Below the pieces are notes generated by a model. That model was given only the letters and a program-made list of their open reading frames with translations, had not been told where the DNA came from and searched no databases. From Escherichia phage SR04: DNA of 40,594 nucleotides. The stretch lies in the sequence record OQ870567.1; one strand, given 5' to 3'. Below, one piece after another: positions 1-40,594 of the stretch (its first letter is position 1; each line of letters starts with the position of its first letter). Made by a program: the position numbers and the translations under genes.

Positions 1-2762
1 ACTACCGGCTCTGTTTTCTTCTCCCCATTAGAAGTAACAATAGGGTTGCTTCCGAGATATGCAGTTGTGAAACGGTTACTTGGTCCACCAAGCGCAATGA
101 CGTTATCGTGATAAGGCTTAACGTCAGCAGTCTGGAACAGATGCTCATCACCATTGTAAACTATTCGCTTTGAGTCGGTGTTATTTGCACCATAAAGCGT
201 AATCTGTGCGCCAGTCGTTGAACTGGTTCCTTCACCTCCGCAAAATATGGTGCGCTGCCCTGCCGGGTTATCAGTCGGTATAGACTTCCCGATAAACCCA
301 TATTCACCTTCCATTAAAACTTCAGAGCGAATGTTACTACTGGTGCTGGCTCTAATGGTCACATGACCTAAACCCAAATCCCCTGTAAATTCCATTGGCG
401 CAGGAACAGTGCGAATCCCATTCGTATCAAAAAACACGGGAACAGCTCTGTTAGGTACAGCACCATACCTGAAATCACGGGAGACATGATTACTTGGGCC
501 AATCTTCATTTTGTAGCAATACAAATCTGAGGGATGACCATCCGCTTTGAATGGGTCCTTCGCTGAGTTATCTCCATAGGTCCATGGGTTAAAATGGTCC
601 TCTCCACCAAACATGTAGTAGATGTAATTATCCTTCACAACTACCGAACCAACACCTACACCTGAGTTAACTATTCCGCCCTGATAAATCTGGTCAGTGA
701 TGTTAACCCATTCAATATCATCTGCATTCCAATTGTTTACATTCAAGCGCGCATAGAAGGTGCGAGGATAAGATGCCTTGTAACGATCATCTGGTGCACC
801 TGCTTCCCATTCATTTTCTGCACGTTCTGAACCAAACATAATAAGGTCATCCCCTACTTTAGCAAAAGGTAATGTAGTATGATGAACATTATGTGGAAAT
901 CTCAGTGACTCCCAAGTCTGACCTATGTCTCTACTACGATGCAAAGAGCTACCTAGTCTATCCCCACGAGTGCCACGAGTGATAAGGTATAATACACCGT
1001 CATAGTACTTGATGCACGGCTCTGCCGCATCTGGTTCATACTCAGATGGTATCTGACGACGAACATAACTAGATGGGCTATTGAAAGCGTCAGGGAAATA
1101 GAAAAGTCCAACTTCGCGTGGAGCTACATCGCCTTGATGATAACCCATAACAAAGCCATTGTTATCAATAGTAGCAAAGCTATGCACCTCTGTGACACGA
1201 GGGATTAGACCAAGGTCTGTCTTACGCCATGGAGACTTATGGAAAGAAGTACCCATGTGCCAATTCTTTCCAGCGTTATTCAAATCTGAAGTCTGCTGGT
1301 TGGGTGTAAGAACCGTGAAGTTGTCCTTATCTATTACGGTTGCAACAGTCATATCACCGGAGACACCTGTTACCGCAGAATTAGAGAAGTTAACAAAATC
1401 ACCCACGAATAGTCCGTGGTCTGGTACATGTATTGTTGCATATTGCTGATTTGCAGCTTTAGTGATACCACCAGTAAGATGCAGGCTACGAGGCATGGGG
1501 CGATCCCACAATGCACAATTGGTTAATGCGTTCTTGGCTAAAGTACGTGTTTCAATCATGGCAAACAGACGGTTGCGACATACACCCATACTCATACAGT
1601 GATAGTTCACTGTAGGGTAATCTGGATGCAGATCAGTTAACCACTCTGGAGTAGACCATGTTTGACCATCATCACCAGACTTAACCCATGATACATGCAG
1701 ACGACTAACACCATGACGATCACTACCCATGTAAGGTGCATATATCACATTATCATATACGAACGCTTTATCCTGAGGCCACGCATTGTAATAAGGGGTG
1801 TCCGTTATTTTGAACAACTCACCCTGAACAAATTCCTCAGAGGCATAATAAAGAGGTTGTCCGGGAATGCGCTCATAAACGAAACGAGTGTTGATGAAGC
1901 GACTAATGTCAGGCAGGGATGTGACCTTATATGTCTTCCCATTGCCATTAATCTTTTGTCCAACCGGTATGTCGTTTAATGCGCTCGTTAACGCTGCTGT
2001 ATCATCAGTGACACCATCACCTTTAGCACCCCAACCACGAACATCTTTTTCATCAAGCCAGCGTGCTCTATGTAATTCAGGGTAGAGTATTGCCCCTTCA
2101 GGATTTGAAATCTGACTTCTTAAAGCAGCATCACCAACACTAACCCACGCACCTAATCCAATCCCACCGGAAGTTTCAGGAGTTGAACCAGCAGGAACGT
2201 TCTTTGGAAGCGTACCATCCCAGCGGTAATAATCACCATCCTCTTCCCATAGCAGGACCTCGCTCCATGTTGTAACGTTGTAGCCTTTCTCGAAGGAGCG
2301 ACGGGTAATATAGCCAATTAGACCAGCTTCCCTGATACTCTCAGCGATTCGTCGTGCTTCGTCCTCGCTATCCTTAGCGTTGCCAGCAGAGCTACTAGCA
2401 GCATCGGCATATTCCTTCGCTAAGTCAACCGTTTGGTCTCGACCTTCTTCTGCAATATGGATAGCCTGAAGCTCTGAATTGGTCAGGTCACTAGCTGTCA
2501 ACACTGAGCCATTCCTGAAGTCTACCACTAAGTCAGTTCCAGTCTGACGGTGAATACGAACGATGTCGAAACCTGATTGGTCAACCAACATCTCAATCAT
2601 CGTTGGATTAAGGAATCGGTAATCTCGACCAACTTCCAGTACACGGTTCAGGGTAGGGTTAGAGCTATTCACCAGCGTAACAACAACAAACGTTCTGGCT
2701 AGGTAGTCGAACTCAATCCTGTACTGAGTGTTTCCTGAAGGGAATTGTGTAATCGTGGACAT
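1..2762 (-). CDS. Tail spike / endosialidase (T7 gene 17 position), 5' part; ATG at 2760-2762, continues across the circular junction into 40085-40517
   Basis: Hand translation gives MSTITQFPSGNTQYRIEFDYLARTFVVVTL..., matching the T7 gp17 N-terminal tail-attachment domain (EYLARKFVVVTL, DYRF, HVAEEARD). Downstream are sialidase Asp-boxes SGDDGQTW and SRDIGQTW. AGGAGG RBS at about 2767-2772. Confidence 0.85.
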   Translation of the reverse strand, partial: MSTITQFPSGNTQYRIEFDYLARTFVVVTLVNSSNPTLNRVLEVGRDYRFLNPTMIEMLVDQSGFDIVRIHRQTGTDLVVDFRNGSVLTASDLTNSELQAIHIAEEGRDQTVDLAKEYADAASSSAGNAKDSEDEARRIAESIREAGLIGYITRRSFEKGYNVTTWSEVLLWEEDGDYYRWDGTLPKNVPAGSTPETSGGIGLGAWVSVGDAALRSQISNPEGAILYPELHRARWLDEKDVRGWGAKGDGVTDDTAALTSALNDIPVGQKINGNGKTYKVTSLPDISRFINTRFVYERIPGQPLYYASEEFVQGELFKITDTPYYNAWPQDKAFVYDNVIYAPYMGSDRHGVSRLHVSWVKSGDDGQTWSTPEWLTDLHPDYPTVNYHCMSMGVCRNRLFAMIETRTLAKNALTNCALWDRPMPRSLHLTGGITKAANQQYATIHVPDHGLFVGDFVNFSNSAVTGVSGDMTVATVIDKDNFTVLTPNQQTSDLNNAGKNWHMGTSFHKSPWRKTDLGLIPRVTEVHSFATIDNNGFVMGYHQGDVAPREVGLFYFPDAFNSPSSYVRRQIPSEYEPDAAEPCIKYYDGVLYLITRGTRGDRLGSSLHRSRDIGQTWESLRFPHNVHHTTLPFAKVGDDLIMFGSERAENEWEAGAPDDRYKASYPRTFYARLNVNNWNADDIEWVNITDQIYQGGIVNSGVGVGSVVVKDNYIYYMFGGEDHFNPWTYGDNSAKDPFKADGHPSDLYCYKMKIGPSNHVSRDFRYGAVPNRAVPVFFDTNGIRTVPAPMEFTGDLGLGHVTIRASTSSNIRSEVLMEGEYGFIGKSIPTDNPAGQRTIFCGGEGTSSTTGAQITLYGANNTDSKRIVYNGDEHLFQTADVKPYHDNVIALGGPSNRFTTAYLGSNPIVTSNGEKKTEPV

Positions 2763-25861: not shown

Positions 25862-26315
25862 CACTTAACTCCTTTCTTTTTTTTGGAATGAGTACACCTG
25901 AAGGCAGACGTACAGTCGTCTCTCGCAGCCACTCAACCGGGATGAACTTATCGGCATACTTAAAGCCGTTCTTTTCGCACCATGCGCCATACGTGGTCGG
26001 AGACCCTTTGTATAACTTGGAGCGGGAACTTGAGAACACGAACCGGATGTCTAACTCTGGGTGCTGTTCTCGTACCAGAAGGTGCTTCTTACGGTCATCA
26101 CTATCGAAGATACCTTTGGTCTCCACGATGATACCGTTAGGAAGAATAAAATCTGGTGTGTACTTGTGGTCGGAAGCCGGAATCACATAGTTGATATAAT
26201 GGCTTTCGTACTCCGCTTTGACGCCGTTCTGTTCCAGCCACTGCTGGTTCTTGGCTTCAAGTCCAGAGCGGTAGGCACCCACAGAGTGCCCCCGTTTTGC
26301 AGACCATTGGGCCAT
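25845..26315 (-). CDS. Endonuclease I (gp3-like, Holliday junction resolvase, 156 aa)
   Basis: AFRSGLE, YVIPAS.H.YTPDF.LPNGI.VETKG...SDDRKKHLL.REQHPELDIR.VFSSSR.KLYKGSPT.YG is near-identical to T7 gp3. Confidence 0.95.
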   Translation of the reverse strand: MAQWSAKRGHSVGAYRSGLEAKNQQWLEQNGVKAEYESHYINYVIPASDHKYTPDFILPNGIIVETKGIFDSDDRKKHLLVREQHPELDIRFVFSSSRSKLYKGSPTTYGAWCEKNGFKYADKFIPVEWLRETTVRLPSGVLIPKKRKELSDDPRS

Positions 26316-27028
26316 TAGAAGTCGTAATCGCCACCAGAGTTGGACTCGGAACCACCTTCGGAACCATCGTCACCGAAGTCATCGTCACCGAAGTCATCGT
26401 CACCGAAGTCACCATCGGTTGACGCTTTGTATCCAGTACCGAGGTCTTCATCATCACCCCAGCCACCATCGCCACCAGCACCATCACCTTTCCACTCCTT
26501 CAGTTCTACCAGAAGGCAGGACTCAAGCTGGAGCTTAACGCTTGCACCAGTCGCAGCGTTCCACTTGAACGGCAGGACTTTAAACTTGACCTTCAGCTTT
26601 GAGCCAGCACCAATATTCGGGACGTCACGGATTAACTTAGCATCGGTGTCGTAGAACCGTAATACGATAGGCTCTGACTTGCCATCTTTAAGGTAAGACG
26701 CAAAGCATTTAAACTTCAGGGTAACAGTACCATCACCATTCTCAATCCACGGCATATCACCTTCACGCGGCTCGATAGGCTTCTTGCCACGCTGAACCTG
26801 AGGTGGGTTCTTCTCGTGGTCTGCGAGTGCTTTTGCATACGCATCGTCGTGAATCTTCTGTAAGACATCAATCATCTTACGGACCTTCGGGTTGCTCAGG
26901 TCGAATGTCAGGTTAACCTTATGCTCACCACGCTCGTTAAACTTGGTGTCTGCTTTGTTCAGCCATGCGTAAGGCTCAACGATACCAGATACCGGAGTGG
27001 TGAAAGTCTTCAGTTGCTCTTTAGCCAT
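26315..27028 (-). CDS. Single-stranded DNA-binding protein (gp2.5-like, 237 aa)
   Basis: AEPYA, GDMP...NGDGT, GASVKLQLES, and an acidic C-terminal tail ending DF, as in T7 gp2.5. Confidence 0.9.
   Translation of the reverse strand: MAKEQLKTFTTPVSGIVEPYAWLNKADTKFNERGEHKVNLTFDLSNPKVRKMIDVLQKIHDDAYAKALADHEKNPPQVQRGKKPIEPREGDMPWIENGDGTVTLKFKCFASYLKDGKSEPIVLRFYDTDAKLIRDVPNIGAGSKLKVKFKVLPFKWNAATGASVKLQLESCLLVELKEWKGDGAGGDGGWGDDEDLGTGYKASTDGDFGDDDFGDDDFGDDGSEGGSESNSGGDYDF
26364..26408. repeat. Perfect 3 x 15-bp tandem repeat (CATCGTCACCGAAGT) inside the SSB acidic tail
   Basis: Read directly from the sequence; encodes the repeated FGDDD units in the gp2.5 C-terminus. Confidence 0.85.
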
Positions 27029-28352: not shown

Positions 28353-28814
28353 TTATAATGAATCTCTTAAGGCTACTGCCTCGGCTATGGTATCGAACGT
28401 ACCGTATGACTTACGCTTTATCCGCAGTTGCCAGCGACCAGTTGATTTCTGGTATTGAACGTATTTCTCTCCAGATTGGCAGTGACTACGGGTTGGAACG
28501 TTAGTTAGGTTCACCGCCTGAGTCACACACCTGAGGTTCTCAATCCTGTTATCCGAAGGGTCCCGGTTGATATGGTCAATCACCATCCCTTCTGGTATAG
28601 GACCGTTGGTTAGTTCCCAGACTACTCGGTGGGCCAGCAGTTGGCCCTTTGTCGTACTTAGAATCCAGTACCCATCCTTTCGTCTATAACCAAGATGTCT
28701 ACCGTTTAGGTTGGAGACTCCAGAGGGAGCCGCCCTGTCTGCTTTAAATCTTGACCGTAGGGTCGTCCTCAGTTCCACGCCACTGGTCGAACGAGGGATG
28801 CCGTAGTAAGCCAC
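28353..28814 (-). CDS. HNH homing endonuclease 1 (153 aa), inserted between the ligase gene and TE
   Basis: HNH-type motif [34 protein letters not shown]...N; GTG start with GGAGGAG RBS inside the ligase 3' end. Confidence 0.8.
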   Translation of the reverse strand: MAYYGIPRSTSGVELRTTLRSRFKADRAAPSGVSNLNGRHLGYRRKDGYWILSTTKGQLLAHRVVWELTNGPIPEGMVIDHINRDPSDNRIENLRCVTQAVNLTNVPTRSHCQSGEKYVQYQKSTGRWQLRIKRKSYGTFDTIAEAVALRDSL

Positions 28815-30633: not shown

Positions 30634-33315
30634 TTAAGCGAATGCAAAGTCTGAAGACAAGATGTCCTCAATATTCAGTTTACCTTTCTTCGGAAGCTCA
30701 GGCAACTTGTCGCGCTGGCTCTCATGAAGCTGGTATTCAAACTGCTCGTAGAAGTCAAGCAGCACATCGTTGTCGCGGTAGGTCTCGACCATCGTCTCAC
30801 GGATACCACGGAACAGATACTCAGCGTCAGCCGGGATGGTCCCGAAGCTATCATGAATCACTGCGAATGACATCACGCCATACTTTCGGTGCGTGTGGAC
30901 TACAGTCTTGCGGAGGTGGCTACCATCTTGTGAGTGGACGAAGTTCGGGCTAATGCCTGACTCCTGCTTGTGCTTGTCAAGCTCTTTCTTCGTGCCTTTG
31001 TTGACCGTAGGTTGAAGGTTGAATGACCCTAAGAACATCAGATTCAGACGAGTGGTATCCTTCTTGCGGTATTCCTGCCAGACCGGGAAACCATCAGGTG
31101 TTACCCAATGTACCGGAAGGCAAGGCTTCAGGATTTCTCCAGTCTTCTTGTCCTTCACTTCAGCAGCCAGCAGCTTGGCAGCACCCTGAAGCCACTTCAT
31201 CGCGTCAACCGCAGCAACTACGGTCACGCTCACAGCTTCCCAAATCATCTTAGCCATGAAGCGGGACGCTTGGCTTGGTTCGGTGAACATAGCGCCAGAC
31301 CCTGAGTCAATCGCCGGCATCACGATGTCCTCGTAAACTTGGTCAGCGAAGCCGTACTCTTTCGACCCGTATGCCAGAGTCATGACTGAACGCTTAGTGA
31401 CCTTGCGTGACATACCGTATGTCAACCACTGACGGGCCAGCTCTCGTGTCCCCAGCTTGATACGTTCGGTAATCTCACCAGTTTTCTTATCCTCGTGAGT
31501 GACCATCTCGTTGTCAGTACCGGTAATCAGCAGGACTTTAAGCTCCTCCTCAATGCGGTCAGACACAATGCGGTAGATGTCTTGTACCATGCCGGATGGC
31601 GTCAGGTTTACTGCATGTCCACCGATGTGGTCACGAAGCATCGCACTGAAGTGCTGAATACCAGAGCATGACCCATCGAACGCTATCGGCAGTGAGCAGG
31701 AGTAAGACAATCCGTGGCGCATTACACCAGCATACTCGAAGCAGAACGCAAGGAAGCAGAACGGAGAGTCTAACTTGCCCCACCACTCAATACTATCCAT
31801 CGGTGCCTTAGCAGCAGCCATGATGTTTTCGTGGTTGTCTTCCACCCACTTGATGCGCTCCTCGAAGGTGACTTTATCAACACCCGCGCAGTTTGCACCA
31901 TGGACCTTCAGCCATTTGAAACCGTCAGCACCAATAGGCTTACCGACTGCCAGAGTCAGGAGACCCTTCTGCATGTCGTTACCCTGAGGGTTGAACATCG
32001 GCACAGCGTAGACTCGACCGCGCCAGTCCATGTTGTATGGAAACCAGATGGCCTTGAACTGAGAGAACTTATTCGCTTGGTTGATGATAAAGCTCAGTGA
32101 TAATCTGCGTGACTGTCGGGCCTTCTCGCGGCGATAGATACCAGCAGCAGCCTTCTTCCATGCCTTGAGTTCCTCCTCGGTCTCACCAGCATAGTCCTCA
32201 GGCTTCAGCGGTTCCATCTGAGGGATGTCATCAATAGGCGTGTTGTTCAGCTTCTCGACCATGTTCACCACGTTCAATACCTTCTTGTTCACTTTCCAAG
32301 GTGTATTTTGAATGATGTTCACAGCGTCATAGACTTCAGGCATGTACACGTCTTCATAACGTGCTACCGCAGACTTAGACCCTAAGCGAATCAATGGTAA
32401 CGGTCTGCGACCTTTGGCCCAGTACCCACCGCCTACTACACCAGTCCACGGTTTAGGTGGAACGACGCAAGGCTGATAGACTGGCGCAATACCCGCAAGG
32501 CTGAATCCACGTTGTGCCATCTTCTTTACCCAGAAGTCTGACAGGTGGACCATCTCAACGTCAGCCGCCGCATTGCCAGCACCATAACGCTTAAGCTCGA
32601 CCAGTTGTGTGGACTGGATGACAATCTCGAGCATCTTGATGCCAACGTGTACCGCTTCGGTCGGACTCCAAGTCCCCCACGCATCTTCCAGTTGGCCTTG
32701 CTCCAGCATGGATGCCTCTACAGCTTGCATGTAGGCTTTCTTGTAGGATGCCCCAGCTCGCTTGTTCAGGTTCTCAGCTATCGCCTTCTTGAAGTGCTCC
32801 TTCTCCTTGTCACGGATGCGACCGAAGCGGATTTCGTCCTCAAGTGTGCGACCTAACGCTGAGGCCATAGGTGTAATCGGTATCCCTTCAGGCTTGACCA
32901 GCTTGGAGAGTATGACCTTCAGTATGATAACCGCAGCGGACTCACAGGAGATGCGCATAGAGCGGTCCTTGACGGCCTTCTCTTCAGTGCTCAACGTGGT
33001 GAACGCTACGCTAGGACGAGAGGTTGACAGCTTCCCGTCTTGGCCTTCGTGCCACTCCTTGACTGCTTGCGCAATCTTAGGCACCAGAGTCTGCATCAAA
33101 GGCTTGGCGACCTGATTGTCTGCCAGTTCCCCGCGCTCGGTCTGGCGCTCAAGGTTCTTGATGAAACGTCGCTCGCCTTCTGTGTAGGCCTCATGCTCAA
33201 GCTGAAGCTGTTTGACTGCAAGGTCTTGCCCGTAGTGGTCTGCCAGCAGGTTAAACGGCTCAATGGCGTTCGACACATCAGAGAAGTCGTGTTTATCAAT
33301 AGAGATGACGCTCAT
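30634..33315 (-). CDS. DNA-directed RNA polymerase, single-subunit (gp1-like, 893 aa)
   Basis: Near-collinear with T7 RNAP: DFSD, PFN.LADHYG, FQPCVVPPKPWTG, WFPYNMDWRGRVYA, FDGSCSGIQHFSAMLRD, HDSFGTIPADA, C-terminal FAFA. Confidence 0.97.
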   Translation of the reverse strand: MSVISIDKHDFSDVSNAIEPFNLLADHYGQDLAVKQLQLEHEAYTEGERRFIKNLERQTERGELADNQVAKPLMQTLVPKIAQAVKEWHEGQDGKLSTSRPSVAFTTLSTEEKAVKDRSMRISCESAAVIILKVILSKLVKPEGIPITPMASALGRTLEDEIRFGRIRDKEKEHFKKAIAENLNKRAGASYKKAYMQAVEASMLEQGQLEDAWGTWSPTEAVHVGIKMLEIVIQSTQLVELKRYGAGNAAADVEMVHLSDFWVKKMAQRGFSLAGIAPVYQPCVVPPKPWTGVVGGGYWAKGRRPLPLIRLGSKSAVARYEDVYMPEVYDAVNIIQNTPWKVNKKVLNVVNMVEKLNNTPIDDIPQMEPLKPEDYAGETEEELKAWKKAAAGIYRREKARQSRRLSLSFIINQANKFSQFKAIWFPYNMDWRGRVYAVPMFNPQGNDMQKGLLTLAVGKPIGADGFKWLKVHGANCAGVDKVTFEERIKWVEDNHENIMAAAKAPMDSIEWWGKLDSPFCFLAFCFEYAGVMRHGLSYSCSLPIAFDGSCSGIQHFSAMLRDHIGGHAVNLTPSGMVQDIYRIVSDRIEEELKVLLITGTDNEMVTHEDKKTGEITERIKLGTRELARQWLTYGMSRKVTKRSVMTLAYGSKEYGFADQVYEDIVMPAIDSGSGAMFTEPSQASRFMAKMIWEAVSVTVVAAVDAMKWLQGAAKLLAAEVKDKKTGEILKPCLPVHWVTPDGFPVWQEYRKKDTTRLNLMFLGSFNLQPTVNKGTKKELDKHKQESGISPNFVHSQDGSHLRKTVVHTHRKYGVMSFAVIHDSFGTIPADAEYLFRGIRETMVETYRDNDVLLDFYEQFEYQLHESQRDKLPELPKKGKLNIEDILSSDFAFA

Positions 33316-33384: not shown

Positions 33385-33407
33385 GAGTCCTATAGTGATA
33401 GTTAAGT
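33385..33407 (-). promoter_or_regulatory. Phage RNAP promoter about 75 nt upstream of the RNAP gene
   Basis: Minus strand ACTTAACTATCACTATAGGACTC; full match to the promoter core. Confidence 0.6.
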
Positions 33408-34506: not shown

Positions 34507-34579
34507 AGTTATATCCTCTCAGTTGTTAGTGACTATCAGTCAGGCCGCTATGAGTCTAACGACCTGTAGTTAATCACTC

Positions 34580-34834: not shown

Positions 34835-35012
34835 CCGTTAAGTTAGTGACTATCAGTCAGGGCCTTTGAGTCTACATCTGAAGGCCCTGTAGTTAGTCGC
34901 TATCGGCGTACATTAAGAGTTTATCCAGATTGTTAAAGAGCATTCCCTTCAGTCAGAGGACTTCAGGTAGACCATTTCAGTGTTGGTCATCACCGTTGTT
35001 TCGATGTGGTAC

Positions 35013-35042
35013 AGCTTACATCGTATCGTTACATCTTGTCAA
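35013..35042 (-). promoter_or_regulatory. Sigma70 early promoter (A3-like): -35 TTGACA, 18-nt spacer, -10 TAAGCT
   Basis: Minus strand GTAGTTGACAAGATGTAACGATACGATGTAAGCTGTACCACATCG resembles the T7 A3 promoter region. Confidence 0.45.
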
Positions 35043-35399
35043 CTACTTTCTGTCATCTGCCTGTTGTTCGTATGACTGATCAGGCTGTCTACTTAACCGG
35101 GATGATCCGGCGTCTTCACTATCCGGTTGTTGCCGTGTCGTGTTGACGGAAGCTATTAAGCCATAGCCTAGACCTATAGTCAATAGGTAATTTGAAATAA
35201 TATTGATTAAGCTATCGTCGGCCTCATGGTTTAAGAGGATATAGTCTTTGACTAACATGTCTTTGACCTTAAGTCTATAGCTTTGTGTCTATTAACTGTT
35301 GGTATCTGACTGTAGGTGTTGGTGTCTTATGGTTGAGACTGTAGGTTAGTGAGACTGTAGGTTAGTTAGACTGTAGGTGTAGGACGTAATGTTATACTA

Positions 35400-35619
35400 T
35401 AACACTATACAGATAGAGACTCAGAGACAGACCTATAGCCCCTACCTATCGTCCTTCCCTAAGCCATAGCCTAGACCTATCGTTGACCTGAAGTCCTGAC
35501 CATCGGTCCAACCTTATGACAGACTGGCTGTGACTGCAAGGAGCAGTAACTGGGGTAGGGCCTTTTGTCTGGACTGAAAGAGGGCCTATGGGGAGACTTG
35601 AGGTTCTTGAACTGTGAGA
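35400..35619. repeat. Predicted genome terminus and direct terminal repeat (collapsed to one copy in this circular assembly)
   Basis: Minus strand from about 35619 reads TCTCACAGTTCAAGAACCTCAAGTCTCCCCATAGG, like the T7 left end TCTCACAGTGTACGGACCTAAAGTTCCCCCATAGG. It is flanked by CCTACAG repeat clusters (35308-35382 and 35655-35703), analogous to the T7 CCTAAAG arrays. Confidence 0.4.
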
Positions 35620-35856
35620 TGTGGTCTCAAACTTTTGGTCCAAAACTCATCGTCACTACTGTAGGCCACAGCCACTGTAGGTCAAGGACCGTAGGTCAGG
35701 CGACACTAGGATAGACCAATAAGTAGGATGACCCTAAGTGAGCTTCTCTTAAGGTGTTACCTAAAGTCCTTGACTGCAGTAGCTAAGGTCAGTAGAGTAG
35801 CGTCAGCTATGAACTGACCTTAGGTCTTCCGCTCATGAATCGTTACCATGATTGCG

Positions 35857-36015
35857 TTAATTACACTGAGAGACCAGAGAGCATACGAGAGTCTCGACCC
35901 ACCCGACCCACTGACTTCCAGCAGTAACGCCAGCAGCAAGTAGAACAGCAGCAAGAAACCTGTATGTAGCTCGATTGGTCGCCAGAGCTTTAAGTACAGC
36001 TTTGGTCTTTGCCAT
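35857..36015 (-). CDS. gp19.5-like small protein (52 aa, MAKTKAVLKALATNRATYRFLAAVLLAAGVTAGSQWVGWVETLVCSLVSQCN)
   Basis: Hand translation; the TYRFL motif and position after the phiOR-like promoter match T7 gp19.5. Confidence 0.55.
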   Translation of the reverse strand: MAKTKAVLKALATNRATYRFLAAVLLAAGVTAGSQWVGWVETLVCSLVSQCN

Positions 36016-36160: not shown

Positions 36161-36183
36161 CATCCCTATAGTGATAGTTAAGT
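36161..36183 (-). promoter_or_regulatory. Phage RNAP promoter (phiOR-like) between the terminase/HNH genes and gene 19.5
   Basis: Minus strand TTAACTATCACTATAGGGATGGG. Confidence 0.7.
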
Positions 36184-36196
36184 TAACCTATTGAAT

Positions 36197-36739
36197 TTAC
36201 TTGTGGTTTCTCTTGGCCCTATCACGCTTAGGGGACCGTAGGGAAACAGCGTACTCCTTGTGCTTCTCTTCACGTAGTGCTGTCAGCCATGCTTCAAGTT
36301 CTATCACAGAGTCGGAAGTCTTTGTGTAGCACTTACCCTTAAGTCGCAACTGAGCGCGATACTTTCCGGTAGGCTTGAAGAAGCTGATACCCTTAGGGAG
36401 ACCATTAGTCTCGCCACCTCCTGAGTTCCATCTGTTCTCCAATGCTGTTACTAACCTGTAGTTATCCGGCCTGTCATCAAGCCTATCACCATTGATATGG
36501 TCAACCATCATGCCAGAAGGTATTCGACCAACGGCTAGGCTGTAGATGATTCTGGCACGTCTATAGCGACTACCAAGGACCTTCACGATTGCGTACCCAG
36601 ACGGATGGACTGAATGTCCCATGACCTCGCCTGGCTTCTTGTTAGAGCCTTTATAGGGCTTCTTGCACACCAACTCACCATCTACATAAGCATAGTGATT
36701 AAAGAGGGCCACCCTGTCGATGGCCTTCTGTTTACTCAT
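36197..36739 (-). CDS. HNH homing endonuclease 2 (180 aa)
   Basis: HNH motif MVDHINGDRLDDRPDNYRLVTALEN; GGAGG RBS 6 nt before the ATG. Confidence 0.8.
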   Translation of the reverse strand: MSKQKAIDRVALFNHYAYVDGELVCKKPYKGSNKKPGEVMGHSVHPSGYAIVKVLGSRYRRARIIYSLAVGRIPSGMMVDHINGDRLDDRPDNYRLVTALENRWNSGGGETNGLPKGISFFKPTGKYRAQLRLKGKCYTKTSDSVIELEAWLTALREEKHKEYAVSLRSPKRDRAKRNHK

Positions 36740-36752
36740 ATTTCTCCTCCTA

Positions 36753-38519
36753 TTAGTGGAACGTAACGTATGACCCTAGTCCCAGCTCGTCGTCCGTATC
36801 GTGAGTTACCCGGACCCCATTGTCCCAGAACTCAGTGTGGATGGACTCGAAGCCTTTCCGTGGGTTCTCCATCTGTTCCTCCAGCCACTCCTCAGTGACT
36901 TCACGTTCGCCTTTGTTGGCATCCTTAGCCATCGACTCAACGAAGAACTGTACACCGATAGCCAGCGCATCAAGTCGGTCATCGTGTGCCAAGGCTCCAC
37001 GCTCACGAGAGATACGGGTCATCTGGTAGAAGAGAGAGTAGATAGGGTTACGAACACCATCCTTATCAGAGGCTGACTGGTAGTCTTGGACGATAGCAGC
37101 AGCGTTAACGATAAGTCTGTGAGACCCCATGATAGGCTCCAGAACGTCACAGATGCGGAGTTCTTTCTGACCCTTACTCTTCACTTCAGTTACAGCAGCA
37201 GGATGGATACGGGCAGCTACAGGCTTGAATAGCTCAAGGTACATACCATCGCCGAAGTTACCCTCAATAACGTATTCGTTGACCTTCCACTTACGACCAA
37301 TCTTAGCCAAGGCTTCCAGCGTAGAGTCTTCATAGCCACCGCGCATACCACCAACTTCCATAGCGAAGATGTAGCCGTTGAGCTGGTACAGTACCGCATA
37401 ACCAGTTTCATCCTTACCACGACCACTAGGGTCAATGACCAGAATCTTCTGGGTGTACGAACTGAAGGCAGAACCTACAGTCTGATACGTGTGGTACGAG
37501 TCACCCATGAGTCCAACGTTAGGAACGTCCTCACGCTTGTTCTGAGGGTTCGGCAACCATTGGTAGACCATTGGGCTAGACTCTGGGTCCAAGTCTGCTA
37601 CGATAAGGTCACGGAGCTTCAGAGGGTACTTCTCTGCATCACTCAGGTTCGGGTTAAGCATGAACTGTAGAGCGAAGCCAGCTTTACCATAGGACAGTTC
37701 ACGTTCCTTCAGGTCCGTATCATCGAATCGTACTTCATCGGTAGGACGCCAGTAGAAGGACTCAGGGTCCTCTTCAAGCTCTGCCTGAAGCATAGGAGCC
37801 AGACGGTCGCCGTAAGACTGCCAGTCCTTCTTATCGCGTGGGTAGCGAGCGGGCCAGATGGTAGTGGTATATCCACGACCTTCCAGCTCACGATACAAGG
37901 TCATCTCGTTCTGAGGAGTACCCAGATAGATGATTGTACCTCCCGGCTTCAGGATAGCGTCGAACTCTTTCACAAGCTCTGACAGACGGTCTCGTGCAGC
38001 CTGAGTCGCTGAGTTGTTCGGAACCTCCACGTCATCGGCAATCAGGATGTCAGCACGACTACCAGTCAACTGACCAGTGATACCAACGGACTTAACTGAA
38101 GGTGAGTGGTCTGGCTTGGCTGGTCCAACGTCGAAGCTGATAACCGCATCTCGCTGCCCCTGCTTAGGTTTGAGTTCCTGAAGCTGAGGCATGAGGTCGA
38201 TGATTCGCTTGATGAAGATGGAGTTCGCATCGGCTCGTTCCTTTGAGGCCGACACAATCATGAACTTCAAGTCTGGGTTGTTCCATAGCTTCCAGACCAC
38301 GAAACCACAGGTCAGAAACGACTTGCCAATACCACGGAACGCCTGAAGTATGAATCGGCGATTATCCCCCGCAGCCAGCTTCTTACACATATCTATCTGG
38401 CAGCGGGTTGGAACCGGAAGGCTAAGAGCTTTCCAGAGAACGAAGATGAAGAACACGAAGTCGTCCCTCATCCTTTGGGTCATTTCTGCCTGTCTTTCAA
38501 CAGGTGTTTTCTTAGACAT
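36753..38519 (-). CDS. Terminase large subunit (gp19-like, 588 aa)
   Basis: Size, position and general similarity to T7 gp19. Confidence 0.9.
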
Positions 38520-38952
38520 AGAGTCCCTCCAGCATTAGGTCCCGGACAGAGATAGCCTCCTCTAAAGTAGGACGTGTTGTTCGCATACGGACTCCCTTAC
38601 GCATGACCTCGATAGCGTAGCCATTCTGATGGAACGATATGTTCTTAACTCCAGTCTTTGAGTCAGAATGTCCTGAGGTGTTGCAGGAGTTCTCGCTTGA
38701 AGTAACTAGCCGGAGGTTGTCCAGCCTGTTGTTAGTCCGGCAGCGGTCAATATGGTCAATCTCCATACCTTCTGGTATAGGACCGTGGGTTAGTTCCCAG
38801 ACGACTCTATGGGCCAGCAGGAGTCCATGACGTCGAGTTCCTACCTGATAATACCCGTGGTTTCCCACACACCCAACATCCTTACCAGAACGCATGGACT
38901 TCAGGCCAGACTTACTGGACTCATTATAGATATACGAATCACTGAGCATCAT
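38512..38952 (-). CDS. HNH homing endonuclease 3 (146 aa), inserted between Rz and the large terminase gene
   Basis: HNH motif [34 protein letters not shown]; about 85% nucleotide identity to HNH1 over the core; ATGA overlap with the Rz stop. Confidence 0.8.
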
Positions 38953-39493: not shown

Positions 39494-39757
39494 TTATTGA
39501 ATACCATACCCTGTGTCATTATCCTCAGTCGCTGAAAGCACCTTATCGTACTCTGCGTTCAGGGCCTCCATATCAGCCAGCGTCTTCTCGTCCACAGACA
39601 CCTTACTTAACACAAAGTTGTGACGAGCAAGCAGCTTCTCAATGGCGTTGTAGAGCTGAGGTGAACGCTTAGTGTCATCCCGCAGGTCTTGCAGCATGAG
39701 TCGAGCACGTTCAGTATCTAGCATTAAGAGGAACTTCTCTAAGTCCATCTGCGTCAT
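39494..39757 (-). CDS. Terminase small subunit (gp18-like, 87 aa)
   Basis: FL.MLDT, RSPQLYNAI.KLL.RH.F align with T7 gp18. Confidence 0.85.
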   Translation of the reverse strand: MTQMDLEKFLLMLDTERARLMLQDLRDDTKRSPQLYNAIEKLLARHNFVLSKVSVDEKTLADMEALNAEYDKVLSATEDNDTGYGIQ

Positions 39758-40517: not shown

Positions 40518-40594
40518 ACTACCGGCTCTGTTTTCTTCTCCCCATTAGAAGTAACAATAGGGTTGCTTCCGAGATATGCAGTTGTGAAACGGTT
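40518..40594. repeat. 77-bp exact duplicate of window positions 1-77 (circular assembly overlap)
   Basis: Direct comparison of both window ends; typical k-mer-length overlap of a circularised contig. Confidence 0.9.

Follow-up and report, generated by a model that had tools for sequence, protein, structure and literature searches.

The region between positions 35300 and 35710 of the Escherichia phage SR04 sequence (OQ870567.1) very probably (we put it at about 90%) represents a concatemer junction in which the two copies of a direct terminal repeat have been collapsed into one, the remaining copy running from 35619 to 35415 on the minus strand over 205 bp. Throughout, the window is the whole stretch of DNA that was analysed, 40,594 nt in length, and all coordinates refer to it (Table 1). 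Judged by homology, the virion DNA is predicted to be a linear molecule of 40,722 bp whose left end is minus-strand position 35619 and which has the 205-bp repeat at either end. Read on the minus strand, this predicted mature DNA would follow the window from 35619 down to 1, continue from 40517 down to 35620, and close with the repeat from 35619 to 35415, beginning with TCTCACAG at 35619 and ending with ...GAGTCTCT at 35415.

Table 1. Features of the SR04 window at and around the predicted concatemer junction
Feature	Coordinates	Strand	Basis
Small terminase subunit	39494..39757	-	phrog_1351, E = 1e-34; 52% identical to T7 gp18 over 62 aa
Large terminase subunit	36753..38519	-	phrog_38, E = 2e-131; 64% identical to T7 gp19 over 579 aa
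Perfect phage-RNA-polymerase promoter, TAACTATCACTATAGGGA	36163..36180	-	Position after the large terminase gene matches T7 phiOR
gp19.5-like 52-aa ORF, last gene before the right end	35857..36015	-	phrog_2193, E = 6e-25
Perfect 11-bp inverted repeat, 19-nt loop	35783-35793 / 35813-35823	.	Identical in K1F
Heptamer array upstream of the repeat: CCTACGG, CCTACAG, CCTACAG, 14-16 nt spacing	35659..35695	-	Motif search
Predicted direct terminal repeat, single collapsed copy, 205 bp	35415..35619	-	End-to-end alignment with the terminal repeats of relatives
ATCTGTA directly after the right repeat boundary	35408..35414	-	Alignment
Heptamer array after the repeat: ACCTACAGTC in four copies	35310..35377	-	Motif search
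71-aa ORF over the A1-like promoter and leader	35043-35258	-	phrog_30192
Putative A1-like host (sigma-70 type) promoter: TTGACT, 17 nt, CTTAAT	35155..35183	-	Alignment with T7 A1
Putative A3-like host promoter: TTGACA, 18 nt, TAAGCT, then GTACCACATCGAAAC as in T7 A3	35013..35042	-	Alignment
Exact 77-nt duplicate of window 1-77	40518..40594	.	Circular closure by the assembler

The SR04 contig is a circularly closed Kayfunavirus genome

SR04 is the complete genome of a K1F-like coliphage of the genus Kayfunavirus, a relative of T7. Over a 25-kb segment it shares 95-97% identity with Kayfunavirus coliphages, phiHAO1-1, phiYIO1-1, Zappy and Mt1B1_P3 among them, and every long open reading frame (ORF) lies on the minus strand, including those for a T7-like RNA polymerase, ocr, gp2.5, the terminase subunits and the tail spike. 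The first 77 bases of the window recur exactly as its last 77, this being the maximum extent of the overlap, and the unique length is 40,517 bp. Such an end overlap is the circular-closure signature of a k-mer assembler, and the start of the contig is therefore arbitrary; the tail spike ORF is probably split across the contig ends. When phage genomes are terminally repeated, assemblers merge both repeat copies and put the first base at random (PMC5557969); because both genome ends carry the same sequence, they are joined in the assembly and base 1 can fall anywhere. The single repeat copy and the 77-nt closure of the SR04 contig are consistent with the state expected when an assembler merges two repeat copies.

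The predicted terminal repeat and its boundaries

The repeat was first placed at 35619 to 35415 by comparison with the T7 boundaries and was then searched against phage records, 231 of which match the 205-bp segment. In many Kayfunavirus records, base 1 of the segment is position 1 of the record and its last base is the end of the deposited repeat. Records that carry the segment at position 1 include four of K1F (1-179) and those of HC12 (1-201), phiYIO1-1 (1-204) and Mt1B1_P3 (1-202), and further matches from position 1 were found in PR_Kaz2018, Penshu1, Peacock, LS2, LS3 and three OX46... records. The initial annotation had put the start of the linear genome at about 35619 on the minus strand and had proposed that a direct terminal repeat of 180-220 bp was collapsed in the assembly. 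The alignment of this position with the first base of so many Kayfunavirus records supports the predicted start, and homology refines the length of the putative repeat, present as a single copy in the assembly, to 205 bp. Several of the matching phage records hold two copies of the segment and the SR04 window one; other than the assembly overlap, the window has no second repeat of similar length. End to end, the repeat aligns with the record ends of K1F, Mt1B1_P3, SH4, Penshu1, phiYIO1-1, HC12 and T7. Homologous repeats, 83-96% identical over their whole length, are carried by K1F and other Kayfunavirus phages (Mt1B1_P3, phiYIO1-1, Penshu1 and the Citrobacter phages SH3-SH5), with a coverage of 100% in comparisons with the record-end repeats of K1F, Mt1B1_P3, Penshu1, SH3 and SH4.

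At the left end, the repeat starts with TCTCACAG, as in T7. The 35 nt read on the minus strand from 35619 to 35585, TCTCACAGTTCAAGAACCTCAAGTCTCCCCATAGG, occur once in the window and 0 times in shuffled sequences; they are identical in K1F, and the first bases of the terminal duplications in the K1F and Mt1B1_P3 records are likewise identical to the start of the window repeat. At the right end, the boundary lies between 35415 and 35414 on the minus strand, where ...CTCT is followed by ATCTGT. In a multiple alignment, the right boundaries of T7, K1F, Mt1B1_P3, Penshu1 and SH4 coincide in a single column, with ...C(T/C)CT on the repeat side and ATCTGT beyond it, and at this shared column the repeats measure 160 bp in T7, 179 bp in K1F and in Penshu1, 191 bp in SH4 and 202 bp in Mt1B1_P3. 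Only the annotated repeat of SH3 runs past it, by 4 nt.

The ends of these relatives have been established in different ways. Those of the Citrobacter Kayfunavirus phages SH3-SH5 were found by run-off sequencing of virion DNA (PMC4925675), the source of the 191-bp repeat annotated in the SH4 record. The Penshu1 and Peacock records annotate a "direct terminal repeat predicted by PhageTerm", 179 bp long in Penshu1. The Mt1B1_P3 record is exactly duplicated at both ends over 202 nt, and the K1F record over 178 nt, compared with the 179 bp cited for K1F in PMC4925675. Repeat length in the genus ranges from 179 to 205 bp through internal indels; the SR04 repeat has 205 bp where that of K1F has 179 bp because of a 26-nt internal insertion, common to Mt1B1_P3 (202 bp) and phiYIO1-1 (204), give or take 2 nt. 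The Kayfunavirus relatives share with SR04 the right boundary, the flanking CCTACAG arrays, the neighbouring genes and the promoters, with a few point differences, and both sides of the junction are collinear with the joined right and left ends of K1F, Mt1B1_P3 and T7. Small ORFs called across the junction, such as 35446-35643, and the one over the promoter region (35043-35258) should be regarded as suspect.

The right-end side of the junction

On the minus strand, the order of features leading up to the repeat is the small terminase gene, an Rz-like spanin gene, an HNH endonuclease gene, the large terminase gene, a second HNH gene, a phiOR-like promoter and a gp19.5-like ORF, the last of these in a position that matches T7 gene 19.5. 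Cleavage at the repeat boundaries is expected to fall to the large terminase subunit, and terminases of the K1F group cluster with those of phages that package short terminal repeats (PMC5582158). The phage-RNA-polymerase promoter is present in nine copies in the window, against 0.03 expected by chance. A promoter-like site for the phage polymerase, with two mismatches, lies at 33387-33404 on the minus strand, just upstream of the RNA polymerase gene (30634-33315).

Three paralogous HNH endonuclease genes were identified in SR04 (28353-28814, 36197-36739 and 38512-38952, all on the minus strand; phrog_99, E = 1e-39 to 6e-45). They share repeats at the DNA level: 28521-28640 and 38701-38820 are 79-89% identical, and a copy at 36492-36538 is 72% identical. 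Two of these genes bracket the large terminase gene, which suggests that they are homing endonuclease insertions.

Between the gp19.5-like ORF and the repeat lies a perfect 11-bp inverted repeat, followed by the upstream heptamers. Folded as DNA, the inverted repeat has a free energy of -12.9 kcal/mol (z = -3.4), and its centre lies 184 bp before the left repeat boundary. T7 may form a hairpin intermediate at an inverted repeat situated left of the junction. We looked for the T7 equivalent of the 11-bp element and, in the literature, for the T7 hairpin claim, and could confirm neither. The inverted repeat of SR04 might serve in concatemer processing or as a site at which RNA is processed.

The left-end side of the junction

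After the repeat, again on the minus strand, come the second heptamer array, an A1-like promoter, a conserved leader, an A3-like promoter, an 84-aa ORF and ocr; the gene for the T7-like RNA polymerase also lies on this side. The initial annotation had pointed to a weaker A1-like promoter, with TTGACT at 35178-35183, between the repeat and the A3-like promoter. In keeping with this, TTGACT (35183-35178 on the minus strand) matches the -35 hexamer of T7 A1 column for column, TTGAC is conserved in 7/7 genomes aligned, and the 17-nt spacing also aligns with that of T7 A1; the -10 hexamer, CTTAAT (35160-35155), is weak, lacking the A at position 2. The assignments of the A1-like and A3-like sites as promoters are putative and were made by positional homology to T7. 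A generic sigma-70 consensus scan called neither site, and over the window it returned no excess of promoter-like sites (4 found, 3.0 expected). The leader that follows the A1-like promoter is conserved even in T7.

A 71-aa ORF overlaps the A1-like promoter and the leader and, as a real gene, would argue against the promoter. Its labels in relatives are gp0.1 in one K1F record, "hypothetical protein" and, once, "alpha,alpha-trehalase". The ORF is split in two, truncated or frameshifted in several relatives, and in SH4 its upstream half has been replaced, with the promoter and the leader retained. Its DNA is partly conserved in T7, which has no gene annotated there. Since the ORF is broken in relatives and half replaced in SH4, and since the leader is kept in T7, which has no such gene, we judge it to be probably non-coding.

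Several other repeats were seen in this part of the genome and beyond it. A 24-nt direct repeat, 23/24 identical (35157-35180 and 35460-35483), places a copy of the A1-like spacer and -10 hexamer inside the terminal repeat, and the two copies resemble each other more closely in SR04 than in K1F or Mt1B1_P3. Another direct repeat, exact over 20 nt, is CCTGACTGATAGTCACTAAC on the minus strand (34842-34861 and 34525-34544), with its copies just upstream of two early ORFs, the 84-aa ORF (phrog_10124) and ocr; because TAACTACAGG precedes each copy, it looks like a duplicated leader or an RNase III-type processing element. In the gene for the gp2.5-like single-strand DNA-binding protein (26315-27028, minus strand), three perfect 15-nt tandem units are found in the 3' part (26365-26411).

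Heptamer arrays and the ATCTGT motif

The heptamer CCTACAG occurs 25 times in the 40.6-kb window, compared with 6.1 +/- 2.5 times in shuffled sequences. At the junction, six copies and one variant, all on the minus strand, lie within 386 bp, the six falling in 35310-35681. The initial annotation had noted that heptamer arrays flank a block of roughly 200 bp on both sides; four copies stand after it and two, together with CCTACGG, before it. The block between the arrays extends from 35658 to 35378, and the repeat proper accounts for 205 bp. In the upstream array, the two CCTACAG copies lie at 35681-35659 and the CCTACGG variant at 35695-35689; this array is identical in K1F and Mt1B1_P3 and corresponds to the CCTAAAG repeats that T7 has at its right end. 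Three of the four downstream copies belong to a tandem with a 16-nt period (35334-35378). The downstream copy number varies among relatives, in which the tandem has five units or two where that of SR04 has three, and this array corresponds to the CCTAAAG repeats of the T7 left end.

Immediately beyond the right boundary, T7 and the six Kayfunavirus sequences aligned with the window all have the hexamer ATCTGT unchanged. At the seventh position the window, like every aligned Kayfunavirus sequence, has A, whereas T7 has T (ATCTGTT). The class II pause signal of T7 consists of ATCTGTT preceded by A, C or T, and T7 RNA polymerase is reported to depend strictly on ATCTGTT, termination being lost when any of its bases is changed (bioRxiv 10.1101/2021.01.11.426313). 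With T-ATCTGTA, the window has 6/7 bases of this signal, and from its position ATCTGTA may be the counterpart of the class II pause signal ATCTGTT at the T7 concatemer junction. The differing seventh base counts against the reading of the region as a concatemer junction. The window shows no enrichment of HATCTGTW (10 sites against 8.5 expected), and only the position of the motif is therefore informative. The idea that K1F-type RNA polymerases use another pause signal in concatemer maturation, or that the duplicated 24-nt element is a protein-binding site that couples end recognition to early transcription, is speculative and in our estimation rather improbable.

Comparison with T7

A short direct terminal repeat with heptamer arrays is an ordinary and already well-known feature, and the SR04 junction very probably belongs to the Kayfunavirus type of this class by its homology, its boundaries, its location, its heptamer arrays and its T7-type terminase. 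The architecture and order of elements are the same as in T7, which has a 160-bp repeat with CCTAAAG arrays, phiOR and A1-A3. The two phages share TCTCACAG as left terminus and CCT/TCT followed by ATCTGT at the right boundary, the A1-like and A3-like sites align with A1 and A3, and the terminases are homologous. The initial annotation had remarked that the minus-strand sequence starting near 35619 mirrors the first 40 nt of T7, and 29/40 positions do match, including the first 9 nt and CCCCATAGG. Over their whole length, the T7 and SR04 repeats have only 114 identical columns in a 210-column alignment. Other differences are the heptamer itself (CCTAAAG in T7, CCTACAG in SR04), the last base of the ATCTGTT motif, and the HNH endonuclease gene that in SR04 is inserted between the large terminase gene and phiOR. 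T7 also has A2 and phiOL, whereas in SR04 the position of A2 is a gap in the alignment and no phiOL-like promoter was found within three mismatches.

Alternative explanations

The junction could be a genuine concatemer junction with boundaries a few to tens of bases away from 35619 and 35415 and a repeat of a length other than 205 bp. Transfer by homology could indeed place the boundaries a few bases off, because the annotated SH3 repeat ends 4 nt past the common boundary, and the one-base discrepancy between the K1F record and the length cited in PMC4925675, as well as the spread of repeat lengths in the genus from 179 to 205 bp through internal indels, point the same way. However, both TCTCACAG and CTCT followed by ATCTGT are identical in relatives whose ends were obtained by three methods, and both are conserved in T7, which leaves a shift of the boundaries with only a small probability.

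A more radical proposal is that SR04 has no fixed ends, being packaged by a headful mechanism with circular permutation or being truly circular, and that the region is simply a conserved non-coding stretch. It would account for a contig that closes on itself and for the deposition of a close relative, phiYIO1-1, as "circular", but circular closure is an expected artefact of terminally repeated genomes (PMC5557969), the SR04 terminase subunits are closely homologous to T7 gp18 and gp19, K1F-group terminases cluster with those of short-terminal-repeat packagers (PMC5582158), and the experimentally determined ends of relatives lie at exactly this sequence. We regard the absence of fixed ends as very unlikely. 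The idea that SR04 resembles the T7 end by coincidence, with its true ends at some other place in the window, has nothing found in its favour and is scarcely credible, given that the 35-nt end motif was never seen in shuffles, that 231 phage records match the segment, that the flanking gene order is that of the T7 and K1F ends on both sides, and that the assembly overlap is the only other repeat of comparable length in the window.

Predicted concatemer processing and implications

A concatemer junction with one collapsed repeat copy, our preferred reading, would have the right-end unique sequence (the gp19.5-like ORF and heptamers) followed by one copy of the repeat and then by the left-end unique sequence (heptamers, the A1/A3-like promoters and ocr). 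By analogy with T7, replication would generate head-to-tail concatemers with one repeat copy per junction, a terminase of the gp18/gp19 type would cut these concatemers at fixed boundaries, the repeat would be duplicated by DNA synthesis during maturation, and each virion would receive linear DNA that starts and finishes with the repeat. Concatemer processing and repeat duplication of the T7 type are summarised in PMC5557969 and PMC5923468. Injection would then proceed left end first, and host RNA polymerase would start at the A1/A3-like promoters just inside the left end.

The genome of SR04 is about 96% identical to deposited ones, and the value of the finding is purely practical, namely correct orientation and annotation: the contig needs to be turned so that minus-strand position 35619 comes first, and completed at its right end with a second copy of the 205-bp repeat, for a total of 40,722 bp. 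SR04 brings nothing new on packaging; what it contributes is another Kayfunavirus end, in which the repeat is of the variant with the 26-nt insertion.
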